The position numbers were made by a program, and so were the translations under genes. The notes beneath the pieces were generated by a model. It saw only the letters and a list, made by a program, of their open reading frames with translations. It was not told where the DNA came from and did not search any database. From IMG/VR virus record IMGVR_UViG_3300010274_000014: DNA of 20,546 nucleotides, one strand, 5' to 3'. Of the stretch, positions 2,503 through 12,712 are shown in pieces. The DNA comes from a virus. Numbering within the stretch: position 1 is the first letter of the stretch; every line of letters starts with the position of its first letter.

Positions 2503-2552
2503 GTGCATGACACTGTAAAATGCAATACAATTCAAAAACGGAGATAAAAACG

Positions 2553-3524
2553 ATGTTAAAACAACTGTTTATGATATTATTTTTAGTTATGCTCTTAGCA
2601 ACACCGTCAGTCGCAAGTGAAAAAGGTGCTATAATCCAGATGACCACAACATTAGAAAACAGCGATACTCAGCTACATTTTAATTATGCTGAAAACCTGG
2701 GAGATGGGCGTGGTGTTACATTTGGGTGTATCGGGTTCTGCACTGGGACTTATGATGGGAACATCCTTGTCAAACATTATACTGAACTGAATCCAAATAA
2801 CAATCTTGCAAAGTATATCCCGGCTCTGAATAAGATTGATGCTGGTCCTCACAATGCAGCAGGTGGAGACGGAAATCCAAGCTTAGAGGGATTATCTGGA
2901 TTTATAAAAGACGTTCAGTCGTGCAATGACCCACTTTTCAAGACAGCTCAGATTGACAAACTGGATGAGCTCTACTATAATCCTGCAATGGAAATTGCAG
3001 ATTCTATAGGCGCAAAAAATGCACTTACTAAAGCTTTCATCTATGATATGTGCGTCAGGCATGGAGTTGACGGGGCAGAAAGCATCATCAGGAAGGCAGG
3101 TACTACTCCGAAGCAGGGAGCTGATGAGAACACATATCTCGGAAAGTTGATTTCACTCAGGGACGCAAAACTAAAGCAGGAAGGCCTGGGAGATGTAAAC
3201 AGAGATCAGGGATACAAAAACGTCCTCAACAGTGGAAATGTTAATCTTCAGACTCCCTTTACTTTCGTTGCTTATGGAGAATCTTTCACTATTGATGGCA
3301 ACTTAGATCTCGGAGAATACCAGGAAGAAATCCCAGTTGAAGAACCACCGGAAGTAATCGAACCGGAAGAACCTGAAGAACCTGAAATTACACCAGAGGA
3401 ACCTGTAATTACTCCAGAAGAGCCTGAAAACACGGAAGAAAAGGATAACAAATGGCATCATAAAAAATATCATAAACACGGCAGGCATCACAAAGAGTGT
3501 CACAGACACAGTAGAAGATGTTGA
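2553..3524 (+). CDS. Secreted GH46 chitosanase-like glycoside hydrolase with Glu/Pro linker and His/Lys-rich tail
   Basis: LENS..NYAENLGDGRGVTFGCIGFCTGT..HYTELNPNNNLAKYIPAL matches the GH46 signature, with the catalytic Glu in ENS and Asp in GDGRG. Signal peptide MLKQLFMILFLVMLLATPSVA. ATG at 2553 has GGAGA upstream; an alternative start is at 2520. Confidence 0.88.
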   Translation: MLKQLFMILFLVMLLATPSVASEKGAIIQMTTTLENSDTQLHFNYAENLGDGRGVTFGCIGFCTGTYDGNILVKHYTELNPNNNLAKYIPALNKIDAGPHNAAGGDGNPSLEGLSGFIKDVQSCNDPLFKTAQIDKLDELYYNPAMEIADSIGAKNALTKAFIYDMCVRHGVDGAESIIRKAGTTPKQGADENTYLGKLISLRDAKLKQEGLGDVNRDQGYKNVLNSGNVNLQTPFTFVAYGESFTIDGNLDLGEYQEEIPVEEPPEVIEPEEPEEPEITPEEPVITPEEPENTEEKDNKWHHKKYHKHGRHHKECHRHSRRC

Positions 3525-5199: not shown

Positions 5200-5369
5200 C
5201 AATCGGAGCGGCACCAGTTTGTTTGGAATGTAAACATTTAATTGAAGATCTGGGTCCTATGCGATGCAAGGCATTTCCTGATGGCATTCCTGATGAGATC
5301 TGGAGAGGCAACAATGACCATAAGAAACCTTATCCTGGAGATCATGGGATACAGTTCGAACACGTATGA
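5196..5369 (+). CDS. Small Cys/His protein, copy 1 (57 aa; putative immunity protein; absent from the ORF track)
   Basis: Hand translation: [61 protein letters not shown] overlap with the MuF stop. Confidence 0.85.
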   Translation: MTIGAAPVCLECKHLIEDLGPMRCKAFPDGIPDEIWRGNNDHKKPYPGDHGIQFEHV

Positions 5370-5539
5370 CTATTGGACCCAGACCTGTATGTTTAGATTG
5401 CAAACATTTTATACACTAGAAGGGCTCGTTCAGGTGTGCCGCTTTCCCTGATGGTATCCCGGAAGAAATAGAGATGGGTGAGAACGACCACAAGAAGCCT
5501 TATCCTGGGGATCATGGAATTCAATTCGAGCACGTTTAA
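5366..5539 (+). CDS. Small Cys/His protein, copy 2 (57 codons, in-frame TAG at codon 18; pyrrolysine read-through or pseudogene)
   Basis: [56 protein letters not shown], with TAG at 5417-5419. ATGA overlap with copy 1. Confidence 0.75.
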
Positions 5540-6602: not shown

Positions 6603-6625
6603 AAAAAAGGAAAAAAGAGAAAAAA
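6603..6625 (-). terminator. Oligo-T terminator candidate for the minus-strand operon
   Basis: A-runs on + (aaaaaaggaaaaaagagaaaaaa) read as T-runs on -, about 20 nt after the stop at 6648. Confidence 0.55.
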
Positions 6626-6647: not shown

Positions 6648-7490
6648 TTAATACGTTATCTTATTGTTTCTTGTTATAGCACTTGGTGCATCAATTCCCG
6701 GCTTCGCACATTTCTCAATTATGTTGTCCTCTATGATTACATTTGACATTTTTGCCTCTATTGCTCGAACTCCTGGATAAGGTAGGTCCTTGATAGAATT
6801 CCCATAAGCTCGGATATCCTTGAGTTCTCCCTGCAACTGCAGACCAGTATGGCCACCTCCGGAGGTGCTGCATTTGTTGTTAAGAAACTCCCCTTTTGTC
6901 ACGTTATAGAAGCGGCAGCTGGAATTTGTTCGGTTGATGAACGTGGAATTTCTAACAGAGATGCCGTCCACGTAATAAGCGTATATCCCATCATGCCCAC
7001 ATTTGTTGACAGTTATTCGGTCTATGTCAACACCATAACAGTTGTTAAGCAGGATGGCATCATTGCAACCGTTCTGGAAAACACAATCCTCGAGAGTCAA
7101 ACCGTTACAGCCTATCAGGGTTGCCATGTTATAAAGCGAAGTTCCGAGCCTGACGTCAGGATAATAATCACTCTGACTACCATCGACAGTGAAGTTCTTC
7201 AGGACCACATTGTTTGCGGAGTTTCCAGCGATCATCAGCATAGCCTTTTCTTCTTTGATAGGACATCCACGGTAACCCCAGGCAGGCAGCCCTTTTGCGA
7301 GCTTTATTGTTGCACCATTTCCATCGAAGATGGTATGGCTACGGAACAGGAGAGAATCTTCTATTGTGTAGATGACATCCGGATCCAGGATTATCGTCCC
7401 ACCATGAGCAAGAGCTTGATTGATTGCTTCTGACGTGGTCCCACGATATGTCCTGAGCTTTCCATCTGCGCCGATAGCTTCAATCGTGTT
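6648..7490 (-). CDS. Parallel beta-helix (pectate-lyase-like/disaggregatase-related) domain, in frame with 7491-8072 across one TAG
   Basis: Frame 7490 to 7242 is open (NTIEAIGADGK..SEAINQALAHGGTIILDPDVIYTIEDSLLFRSHTIFDGNGATIKL..) and runs into MLMIAGNS at 7241. It has PbH1-like repeats and GHDGIYA..RTNS..R motifs. Read-through would give 474 aa from 8072. Confidence 0.8.
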   Translation of the reverse strand, partial: NTIEAIGADGKLRTYRGTTSEAINQALAHGGTIILDPDVIYTIEDSLLFRSHTIFDGNGATIKLAKGLPAWGYRGCPIKEEKAMLMIAGNSANNVVLKNFTVDGSQSDYYPDVRLGTSLYNMATLIGCNGLTLEDCVFQNGCNDAILLNNCYGVDIDRITVNKCGHDGIYAYYVDGISVRNSTFINRTNSSCRFYNVTKGEFLNNKCSTSGGGHTGLQLQGELKDIRAYGNSIKDLPYPGVRAIEAKMSNVIIEDNIIEKCAKPGIDAPSAITRNNKITY

Positions 7491-8072
7491 CTATCGCTTC
7501 AGTTTGACGTATATTTCAATACCTTCTGCCCGCTCCTTGATCTTCTCGGATATCTCTTCGGCTTCTGACTCAGAGACACATGGAATTACCAGGTAGGCTG
7601 CATCGTCCGGCTGAGTAGGGATCTCGGGTGTTTCAGGCTCCGGTTCGGTTGGCTTTTCAGGCTCCACAGGCTGTTCTGGTTCAGGCTCAGGATCGACATA
7701 AGAATAAGTGTATGCCACGTTCATCATTCGGGATCTGGGTGTCCCAGAGGTTTTCAGATACCATCTGATGATAACAGGCTTTCCAACTCCGGCAACAAAA
7801 TCTACTGCCTTGAGCTGCTCTTCATATTTTGTATTCTTTGTTGTGAATGTTGCCAGTTGTTCCTGCTTCCCATCGACTTCTATAGTAACTATGCATGTGC
7901 CTTCAATGCCTGAAGCCGAAACCTGAAATAACATGGAAAGCTTTTCAATCTTGATCCTCTTACCTTCCTGTGCTGGAATCGTTTCTTTTTTCTGCATTTC
8001 CCTTTCTGTCGAAAAATCGATTTCGGTGTAGATGGTCGAATATACTTTTTTTGTATCCTCAATGGTAGGCAT
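7491..8072 (-). CDS. Beta-rich domain, Glu/Pro linker and short C-terminal module; ends in TAG (possible read-through)
   Basis: 193 aa, with AGGAG upstream of ATG 8072 and a PEPEQPVEPEKPTEPEPE linker. The stop at 7493-7491 is TAG. Confidence 0.8.
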   Translation of the reverse strand: MPTIEDTKKVYSTIYTEIDFSTEREMQKKETIPAQEGKRIKIEKLSMLFQVSASGIEGTCIVTIEVDGKQEQLATFTTKNTKYEEQLKAVDFVAGVGKPVIIRWYLKTSGTPRSRMMNVAYTYSYVDPEPEPEQPVEPEKPTEPEPETPEIPTQPDDAAYLVIPCVSESEAEEISEKIKERAEGIEIYVKLKR

Positions 8073-8074
8073 GG

Positions 8075-9355
8075 TTATTTTCTCCTAAAAATCTGTTTTT
8101 CTGGTAATGAATTTCGAATAGCAGTAACCTGTTCAGAACTACAAGAAATAAACAAGAAAGCTGGTCTTTCAGCTGGCTCTTCTTCTGGACCCTCAACTGT
8201 GCTGGATACATTTATTGCACCGTAGTAATCCCCAGATTCGTTATTCAGGAAAGTGTTCTCAGAAGCTTCAACGGTATAGTAATCCTTTCCAAGAACATTG
8301 GCAATTGCATATCCTGAAACTGCCCCTGGATAGAAGGCCTTCCTTGTATTGACAATTGAGTTCTTCCTGACTGTTGCTTTGCAGCCCTTCACCCCACCTT
8401 TCCCGATGTAGTTGTCAAAACTGACCGCATTTCCAGAGCACCCATCAAAAATATTGTTCTCGATCAGAACATCCGTGAAACCATCAAAAACCATCCCACC
8501 TACTCCAGGGATCGTGTTCGCTGCTGGCATCATACCGCAGTTTCTGAATGTATTGTGATGGATGTACACTCCAGCTGCACCGCCCAGAGGCACGCTTGCT
8601 ATACCCCAGACACCAGGTCCGTAAGTGTCCTGGACCAGGCAATTCTTCATCTCGATATGCATGCATTTTGTCCCGTCCAGGATATTCTCAAGCTGCACAG
8701 GCGGAGCCCAGGCATTGTTCGTGAAGTCGTGGAACTGGCAGCTGTCAATCAGGACATTAGAAGAGGACCTTACCCGGACAGCATTGTTAGCCCGGATTTC
8801 AAAAGAACAGTTTTCAATCGTGGCTCCAGAACATTTGAAAAGGTGAATGAAGTCATGTCCCCCTTCTGCACCGGAGCAGTGGTCAAAGACAAGGTTTGAA
8901 CCGCCGTTCAGCCTCCACCCATCCCCCTCATTCCGGTTCACTTCCACATTCCGGAATACTGAGTTTGTGATATTTGAAAAGCCGAACAGGTTTCCATACC
9001 CTACTCCATGATCGTTCTGAGTGTTTCCCTGGTTTGCATAGTTCCCATCATAGACAAGGCCGTCAACTTCCAGGCCTGTAATCGAAGAGCCTTTCTGTCC
9101 TATGATAGGGACCTGTGCTCCAAAGTTAGGAGCGTTGTCCATGAGCTTCCATGTCACTCCTTCCTCGAAAGTCATTTTTGTATTATCGTTCAAAAACAGC
9201 CGGGAGTTGAGGAGGTATTGTCCGGTATCGCCTTTCAAAAAATGAACATGTGAGTACTGTAGCAGATCGCCGTTCACCGTTCCCGTTTTGTCAAGTGCCT
9301 TCTGTATGCCAGGGGAACTTGTTCCCTTAACCGGGGTTAGTATGCAGGTTTCCAC
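8075..9355 (-). CDS. Right-handed parallel beta-helix polysaccharide depolymerase-like protein (disaggregatase-related)
   Basis: 426 aa with repeats such as ITNSVFRNVEVNRNEGDGWRL, GGHDFIHL, DTYGPGVW, VYIHHNTF and LIENNIFDG. GTG start, no signal peptide. Confidence 0.82.
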   Translation of the reverse strand: METCILTPVKGTSSPGIQKALDKTGTVNGDLLQYSHVHFLKGDTGQYLLNSRLFLNDNTKMTFEEGVTWKLMDNAPNFGAQVPIIGQKGSSITGLEVDGLVYDGNYANQGNTQNDHGVGYGNLFGFSNITNSVFRNVEVNRNEGDGWRLNGGSNLVFDHCSGAEGGHDFIHLFKCSGATIENCSFEIRANNAVRVRSSSNVLIDSCQFHDFTNNAWAPPVQLENILDGTKCMHIEMKNCLVQDTYGPGVWGIASVPLGGAAGVYIHHNTFRNCGMMPAANTIPGVGGMVFDGFTDVLIENNIFDGCSGNAVSFDNYIGKGGVKGCKATVRKNSIVNTRKAFYPGAVSGYAIANVLGKDYYTVEASENTFLNNESGDYYGAINVSSTVEGPEEEPAERPAFLFISCSSEQVTAIRNSLPEKQIFRRK

Positions 9356-9380: not shown

Positions 9381-9395
9381 GTTAACGCTGTTAAC
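9381..9395 (-). promoter_or_regulatory. 15-bp dyad GTTAACAGCGTTAAC, copy 2, upstream of the minus-strand operon
   Basis: The + strand reads GTTAACGCTGTTAAC. On - it is preceded by TTTATTAAA and ends 25 nt before GTG 9355. Confidence 0.8.
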
Positions 9396-12697: not shown

Positions 12698-12712
12698 GTT
12701 AACAGCGTTAAC
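12698..12712 (+). promoter_or_regulatory. 15-bp dyad GTTAACAGCGTTAAC, copy 3, upstream of the capsid/tail operon
   Basis: Directly preceded by TTTATAATT and ends 8 nt before ATG 12721. Confidence 0.82.

Follow-up and report, generated by a model that had tools for sequence, protein, structure and literature searches.

Gene organization at the amber junction

This analysis concerns a gene with an in-frame amber codon in a 20,546-nucleotide stretch of viral DNA (IMG/VR record IMGVR_UViG_3300010274_000014), which as a whole is called the window below. The minus strand of the window carries two adjacent genes. Gene 1 (8075..9355) encodes a 426-amino-acid (aa) right-handed beta-helix protein with a disaggregatase-associated domain (PF08480, E 4e-23; PF13229, E 2e-15) and matches the PHROG tail spike family phrog_2234. 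The second gene opens at an ATG (8072-8070) with an AGGAG nine bases 5' of it and runs in one frame through 193 codons, a TAG (7493-7491), a further 280 codons and a terminal TAA (6650-6648). Taking the TAG as a residue gives a product of 474 aa. A preliminary description of this DNA, made from its letters alone, had placed two open reading frames (ORFs) in a single frame with only this TAG between them, and translation of the minus strand bears this out. We propose that the amber codon (UAG, 7491..7493) is a site at which termination may compete with decoding by host tRNA(Pyl) charged with pyrrolysine (Pyl), and that the TAA (6648..6650) would be the stop of the resulting long form.

The first canonical start 3' of the TAG is an ATG at codon +84 (7241-7239). 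The 83 codons before it (codons 195-277, 7242..7490, minus strand) contain no ATG, GTG or TTG, just as had been described, and encode the N-cap and first coils of a beta-helix that is confidently folded in the structural model. Codons +2 and +3 after the TAG are ACG and ATT, and the best Shine-Dalgarno (SD) match before them is 3 nt. The missing SD-like motif, also part of the preliminary description, is therefore real at this position but weakly informative, because seven of the 22 accepted genes of the window likewise have matches of 3 nt or fewer and 40% of random positions reach 4 nt.

TAG is not used as a stop by any of the 22 accepted window genes. The earlier claim, made for a set of 25 other genes, that none has a TAG stop holds for this separately accepted set. 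Among ORFs of at least 150 aa in eight related loci, 22 end in TGA, 19 in TAA and two in TAG, and both TAGs are the junction studied here. Since ATG, GTG and TTG make up 3.7% of the coding codons of the window, a start-free run of 83 codons has a probability of about 0.042. Two ordinary abutting genes would show this arrangement with a rough chance of 1/3 (same frame) x ~0.05 (TAG) x 0.042, or about 7e-4.

The short form is a complete protein

The 193-aa protein has no Pfam match and no PHROGs family. Its AlphaFold2 (AF2) model has a confidence score (pLDDT) of 92. Residues 1-126 (7695..8072, minus strand) are modeled as an eight-stranded jelly-roll that resembles carbohydrate-binding modules (CBMs) or TNF-like lectins. 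VIA-align places this domain at Z ~10 to CBM36, CBM6 and CBM22, to the TNF-like lectins PLTL and Pgp3, and also to the CBD of a cyanophage short tail fibre. The fold suggests glycan binding; fold alone assigns no function, and the matched families are unrelated. Residues 127-158 (7599..7694, minus strand) form a Pro/Glu-rich linker that is predicted to be disordered from its low pLDDT and varies in length across the family. The short form ends in a small, conserved strand-helix-strand domain (residues 159-193; 7494..7598, minus strand), which is kept at the end of 34 family members.

A search of the full library identified dozens of relatives that are 160-190 aa long, stand alone and align with residues 1-191. 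In their common layout, a beta-rich domain is followed by a Pro/Glu linker and then by a small strand-helix-strand domain at the end. The DNA of eight related loci shows that the more distant relatives (173-180 aa) terminate with TAA or TGA at the position homologous to the TAG and that no in-frame sequence continues beyond it, from which we conclude that the short form is a complete protein. TAG occurs only where an in-frame extension follows; relatives without an extension use TAA or TGA. No longer fused relatives of the 193-aa protein were found among cluster representatives, which is weak evidence, and a broad alignment of the family gave no usable pattern.

The extension is a beta-helix without a start codon

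Behind the TAG lies a right-handed beta-helix (PF13229, E 2e-13, 50.7 bits against a cut-off of 25.9). In the model of the full-length 474-aa form, the beta-helix is ordered from residue 196 onward, two residues past the TAG, and an N-cap helix spans residues 214-221. The typical beta-helix N-cap that had been read in the intervening codons is thus present. The rest of the beta-helix (codons 278-474; 6651..7241, minus strand) also falls within PF13229 and is the part that annotation pipelines call. An ORF of 195-197 aa called from the first ATG would miss the N-cap and the first coils.

Foldseek matches of the beta-helix include GH28, GH87, AlgE4, the RbmB lyase, and phage tailspikes and depolymerases. 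In sequence, the post-TAG part is ~58% identical to signal-peptide-bearing beta-helix proteins of 295-298 aa from many named Methanosarcina species. These cellular homologues, together with the Disaggr_assoc domain of the neighbouring gene, indicate that the host lineage is probably Methanosarcina, a methane-producing archaeon. The extension is a putative glycan-degrading domain, and its likely target, judging from the neighbouring Disaggr_assoc protein and from host biology, would be methanochondroitin or the surface glycan layer. Such a layer shields Methanosarcina aggregates (PMC12369344).

Public annotation of this gene is inconsistent. Databases hold the beta-helix as fragments of 159-197 aa or, in one NCBI record (P0171), as a 278-aa product started at the ATT. 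A 474-aa Logan protein in the same 90% cluster as the window protein (P0174) corresponds to the complete read-through product and has Gln in place of the TAG, which reflects either a caller table with TAG as Gln or a natural CAG variant. As pipelines call only the fragments or the ATT start, a whole clade of putative methanogen-virus depolymerases is truncated in databases.

The amber codon and the frame are conserved

Two IMG/VR and two JGI contigs (L001, L002, L008 and L009) represent one orthologous lineage that is 66-67% identical to the window in protein. All have the TAG at the same junction, and their final stop is TGA. Synonymous sites are saturated between the window and this lineage, with a proportion of synonymous differences (pS) of 0.73-0.89. 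The proportion of nonsynonymous differences (pN) from L001 is 0.17 in the jelly-roll, 0.27 in the 83 start-less codons (pS 0.79) and 0.15 in the rest of the beta-helix, and the extension has a pN/pS of ~0.2-0.35. The sequence on both sides of the TAG, the start-less stretch included, is under purifying selection.

Conceivably, the beta-helix ORF is a decaying, unexpressed remnant left after an ATG became ACG, in which case only the 193-aa protein would matter. Such a loss takes a single transition, and the 159-197-aa fragments called by pipelines would be in line with it. Yet the frame is open for 280 and 311 codons in two synonymously saturated lineages at the pN/pS given above, the exact sequence occurs on 167 contigs, and the lack of a start extends across a clade whose domains are intact. 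We therefore give this explanation little credence. A pseudogene was considered separately and is contradicted by the purifying selection on the extension.

The L001 lineage carries 31 extra in-frame Pro/Glu linker codons after the TAG (L001 6574-6666 and the equivalent in L002), and no canonical start appears for 86 codons. The inserted codons repeat the motif EQPSVPAGPEPEQP that occurs before the small domain of the same gene. An in-frame duplication of this kind makes sense as a linker only if the TAG is read through. The ACG and ATT of the window correspond to TCA and ATC in the L001 lineage, so that the amber codon and the frame are conserved and the near-cognate start is not. Re-initiation at a nearby AUG was also considered and rejected: close to the L001 junction there is a single ATG, which lies in another frame that leads to a stop.

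The base that follows the UAG is A in both lineages, giving UAGA (window 7490-7488; L001 6574-6576).

The two parts lie on one predicted transcript

Three T6 runs directly 3' of the TAA (6603..6625, minus strand) are likely an archaeal oligo-T terminator of the operon. Between 8012 and 6625, the minus strand has no run of five or more T, and hence nothing terminator-like between the TAG and the extension. The absence of oligo-T before the extension and the T6 cluster after the TAA are consistent with a single transcription unit. Contigs from RNA libraries bridge the TAG unchanged and show no variant there; being contigs, they are silent on expression level, transcript ends and translation, and stretches that they leave uncovered carry no meaning.

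Homologue architectures and independent initiation

Homologues of the beta-helix fall into three architectures. Type A comprises proteins of 278-280 aa that have Met at the position of the window's ACG. In type B (P0178 and P0180-P0184 among them; 317-327 aa), the strand-helix-strand domain is continuous with the beta-helix and sense codons occupy the TAG position; the N-terminus of these proteins matches the profile of the 193-aa family (hhalign, E 6.6e-5). The window and the L001 lineage, with their TAG junction, constitute type C. Maximum-likelihood phylogeny unites type C with six other database lineages in a single clade (support 96/93; other members P0177, P0179, P0185, P0186, P0187, P0189, P0200 and P0202). 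Its sister clade is type B (97/95), and type A and the cellular proteins fall outside. None of the gene calls in the clade begins at the beta-helix N-terminus. Those of the six further lineages begin at scattered internal Met or Leu residues, around positions 19, 23, 27, 47, 86 and 87. The simplest history suggested by these sequences is that an independent gene was joined to the small domain and that an amber codon came to lie at the joint in one clade.

Several observations weigh against read-through. The type A homologues (P0007, P0026, P0190, P0191 and P0193-P0195) begin with Met exactly at the ACG position, and the type A locus read as DNA (L020) has its own GGAG SD motif and ATG. To judge from these sequences, the beta-helix was certainly an independent gene in its ancestry, from which ATG to ACG is a single transition. 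The TAG coincides exactly with the natural C-terminus of the upstream family, as an ordinary stop would, and one NCBI record annotates the 278-aa product from the ATT. The RNA-library contigs could reflect DNA carry-over. No RNA structure resembling a pyrrolysine insertion sequence (PYLIS), an element known for mtmB, was found after the TAG (z -0.23 in the window, +1.9 in L001), and no RNA motif is essential for UAG read-through (PMC12626013). A few Methanosarcina strains are Pyl-minus, most being Pyl+ (PMC12626013). Finally, the junction TAG was read in DNA in two independent lineages, and the other clade members come from protein calls.

The type A starts, the ATT-started record and the position of the TAG are also what one would expect of two ordinary genes, in which the TAG is a plain stop and a beta-helix protein of ~278-279 aa is started at the ATT or ACG without any functional fusion. 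In the type A locus, ~900 bases separate the beta-helix gene from the jelly-roll gene, whose stop is TAA. A comparison of orthologues at the TAG and ACG positions, suggested in the preliminary description, shows that the TAG is conserved and the ACG is TCA in L001; Met at the ACG position is found only outside the clade, in independent genes. The orthologue also has its 31 extra linker codons 5' of the TCA and ATC, and its N-cap is still conserved. The SD match of only 3 nt and the absence of any clade member that starts at this point argue further against an independent start, and we found no documentation of ACG or ATT initiation in Methanosarcina. Even then, a Pyl-decoding host would read the UAG through to some extent (PMC12626013). 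We consider two ordinary genes unlikely, and near-cognate initiation, which had been offered as the alternative in the preliminary description, is disfavoured by the TCA and ATC of the orthologue.

Read-through with pyrrolysine as the proposed mechanism

We propose that the 193-aa form is made by termination and the 474-aa form by read-through of the UAG, probably with pyrrolysine, and assign this reading a probability of roughly 0.68. The conserved TAG, frame and lack of a start, the type B fusion, the completeness of the short form and the affinity to Methanosarcina support the two isoforms envisaged in the preliminary description, and on comparative grounds no other reading is supported as well. 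In the proposed scheme, the cassette (9355-6648, minus strand) would be a late operon of a head-tailed Methanosarcina provirus, with its second cistron translated from the ATG at 8072. Ribosomes that reach the UAG at 7493-7491 would either terminate or read through. Termination would release the complete protein with its lectin- or CBM-like jelly-roll, Pro/Glu linker and strand-helix-strand domain. Read-through by host Pyl-tRNA(Pyl) would add 280 codons and place the beta-helix glycan-degrading domain on the same chain. As the beta-helix lacks its own start codon, this would be its only efficient route of expression.

Known biology of the presumed host is compatible with such a scheme. In M. 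acetivorans, an in-frame UAG yields a long and a short form of RdmS, and the long form requires pylBCD (PMC12626013). Pyl+ Methanosarcinaceae seldom use TAG as a stop, the median being 4.9% (PMC12626013). In a host of this kind, both products must arise from the viral mRNA.

Alternatively, the UAG could be decoded without pyrrolysine, by a viral suppressor tRNA, by a reassignment like that of code 15, or by leaky termination with a near-cognate tRNA. The Gln in the 474-aa Logan record, which comes from either a TAG=Gln caller table or a natural CAG variant, would be in line with such decoding. The window carries no tRNA gene, however, and only one or two in-frame TAGs in 20.5 kb, whereas recoded phages have many in their late genes. 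The host lineage moreover has a dedicated UAG decoder, and RNA and metagenome contigs show the TAG without variants. This is in our view the least probable of the alternatives, and in the specific form of a whole-genome TAG reassignment with a viral suppressor tRNA it is contradicted by the few in-frame TAGs and the missing tRNA gene.

If the UAG is read by Pyl-tRNA(Pyl), the ratio of short to long form would be set by the release factor and charged tRNA(Pyl), and their competition implies that it should track the methylamine-dependent Pyl supply of the host. We infer that the inserted residue is pyrrolysine, that both forms are used and that their ratio is physiologically tuned. The link to host Pyl availability would follow from the published charging of tRNA(Pyl), which is ~70% on trimethylamine and ~7% on methanol (PMC13663744). 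We speculate, tentatively and with some doubt, that the virus uses the Pyl machinery of its host as a rheostat, such that the depolymerase-bearing fraction rises on methylamines and falls on other substrates. If true, the composition of the virion or of a lysis enzyme would be coupled to the metabolic state of the host, the long form would be the first viral protein documented to contain pyrrolysine, and its synthesis the first case of programmed read-through in an archaeal virus.

Virus, host and genomic setting

The window encodes a terminase large-subunit C-domain, a Mu-F-like protein, an HK97-type capsid protein and a tail-completion protein, as well as an Ig-bearing major tail protein and a tape-measure protein. 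The terminase, capsid, tail and tape-measure genes identify it as part of a head-tailed virus or provirus. The stretch is present in a ~5-Mb assembly from an isolate as well as in many metagenomes of digesters and bioreactors, and the exact 193-aa protein is recorded on 167 contigs, the longest of 3.19 Mb. This occurrence fits a provirus. The phage collection contains no match to the window by DNA or by protein.

In each related locus examined, the jelly-roll gene lies directly behind a gene for a Beta_helix and Disaggr_assoc protein of 416-475 aa. The two form a module with 0-3 bases between the genes and a jelly-roll protein of ~175 aa, which recurs in diverse methanogen-virus contigs (window 8075-9355 with 7494-8072; L001 4745-6570; L011 2131-4031; L014 2251-4043; L017 2070-4022). 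The jelly-roll protein might serve the tailspike-like protein as adaptor, binding subunit or assembly factor. Another locus (L007 3001-4452) encodes a 483-aa protein with two tandem jelly-roll copies and an uncharacterised C-terminal region. It follows that the jelly-roll serves as a module in larger virion-type proteins.

A 15-bp dyad, GTTAACAGCGTTAAC, lies just 5' of the first gene of the operon (9381..9395, minus strand, exact match). Further exact copies of GTTAACAGCGTTAAC precede two other operons on the plus strand (894-908 and 12698-12712). We regard it as a candidate late-gene operator or promoter element.

Among the head genes, the plus strand encodes a protein of the GH46 (chitosanase) family (2520-3524; PF01374, E 4e-46), which would be a third glycan-active enzyme of the provirus. 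The plus strand also carries five tandem Cys/His paralogues, the second of which is a 57-codon mini-gene (5366-5539) with an in-frame TAG at 5417-5419. This TAG sits in a variable loop, and all of the sequence 3' of it is conserved relative to the other copies, which makes it another candidate site of read-through in the same provirus.

Comparison with known systems

A close counterpart is RdmS of M. acetivorans, whose mRNA, as proposed here, is translated into a short and a long product owing to one in-frame UAG, with the long form dependent on Pyl synthesis (PMC12626013). RdmS is a cellular sensor kinase, whereas the gene studied here is viral, and its short product is no truncated fragment but a complete protein that has stand-alone relatives. 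The extension also differs, being a whole putative enzyme domain without a start, in an arrangement that is kept across a viral clade.

Genes with internal TAGs are described in the Genetic Code 34 preprint, which lists Methanosarcina among the genera with many of them and reports that transposases and casposons carry them (bioRxiv 10.1101/2024.09.30.615893). Like those genes, the one described here has a TAG inside a frame with homology on both sides. The scheme of the preprint would assign a fusion of two recognisable proteins to its ambiguous Category 3; here, the comparative data argue that both readings are used. Viruses are mentioned 0 times in the text of the preprint (bioRxiv 10.1101/2024.09.30.615893). 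Full-text searches of the literature on pyrrolysine in connection with archaeal viruses, Methanosarcina proviruses and tail fibres revealed no viral gene described as dependent on UAG read-through.

Outside the archaea, the A1 protein of RNA phage Q-beta, a minor version of a virion protein with a C-terminal extension, is made in a bacterium when a normal tRNA reads a leaky UGA; the short form is abundant and the extended one rare, and each has a function. The present gene would share with A1 a leaky stop and a C-terminal extension without independent initiation. It differs in that the codon is UAG, the virus is a dsDNA virus of archaea, and decoding would involve a dedicated host tRNA with the 22nd amino acid, such that the ratio could follow host metabolism. 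Gut phages with code 15, such as crAss-like and Lak phages, have many in-frame TAGs and often their own suppressor tRNA. Full expression of their genes requires amber suppression, as it would here; unlike them, the window has one junction TAG, one mini-gene TAG and no tRNA.

Glycan-degrading enzymes usually have a binding module linked to the enzyme domain. The long form would share its beta-helix, binding module and flexible linker with the beta-helices of phage tailspikes and depolymerases (phrog_2234, phi29 gp12 and Klebsiella phage depolymerases) and with CBM-enzyme glycanases. In contrast to these, the binding module and the predicted enzyme are joined through a stop codon, and the sequence relatives of the enzyme part are secreted Methanosarcina beta-helix proteins.

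The gene could also serve as a natural, non-essential reporter of UAG read-through in Methanosarcina, as its products of ~21 and ~52 kDa are easily separated, and it could directly probe how Methanosarcina balances stop and Pyl. Expression strategies based on stop read-through are known from RNA phages and retroviruses; we found none reported for an archaeal virus or with the 22nd amino acid. If the proposed mechanism is confirmed, viruses of Pyl-decoding archaea exploit an ambiguous amber codon to obtain two proteins per cistron. Programmed read-through and ambiguous Pyl decoding are each of a known kind, and what would be new here is their occurrence in an archaeal virus.

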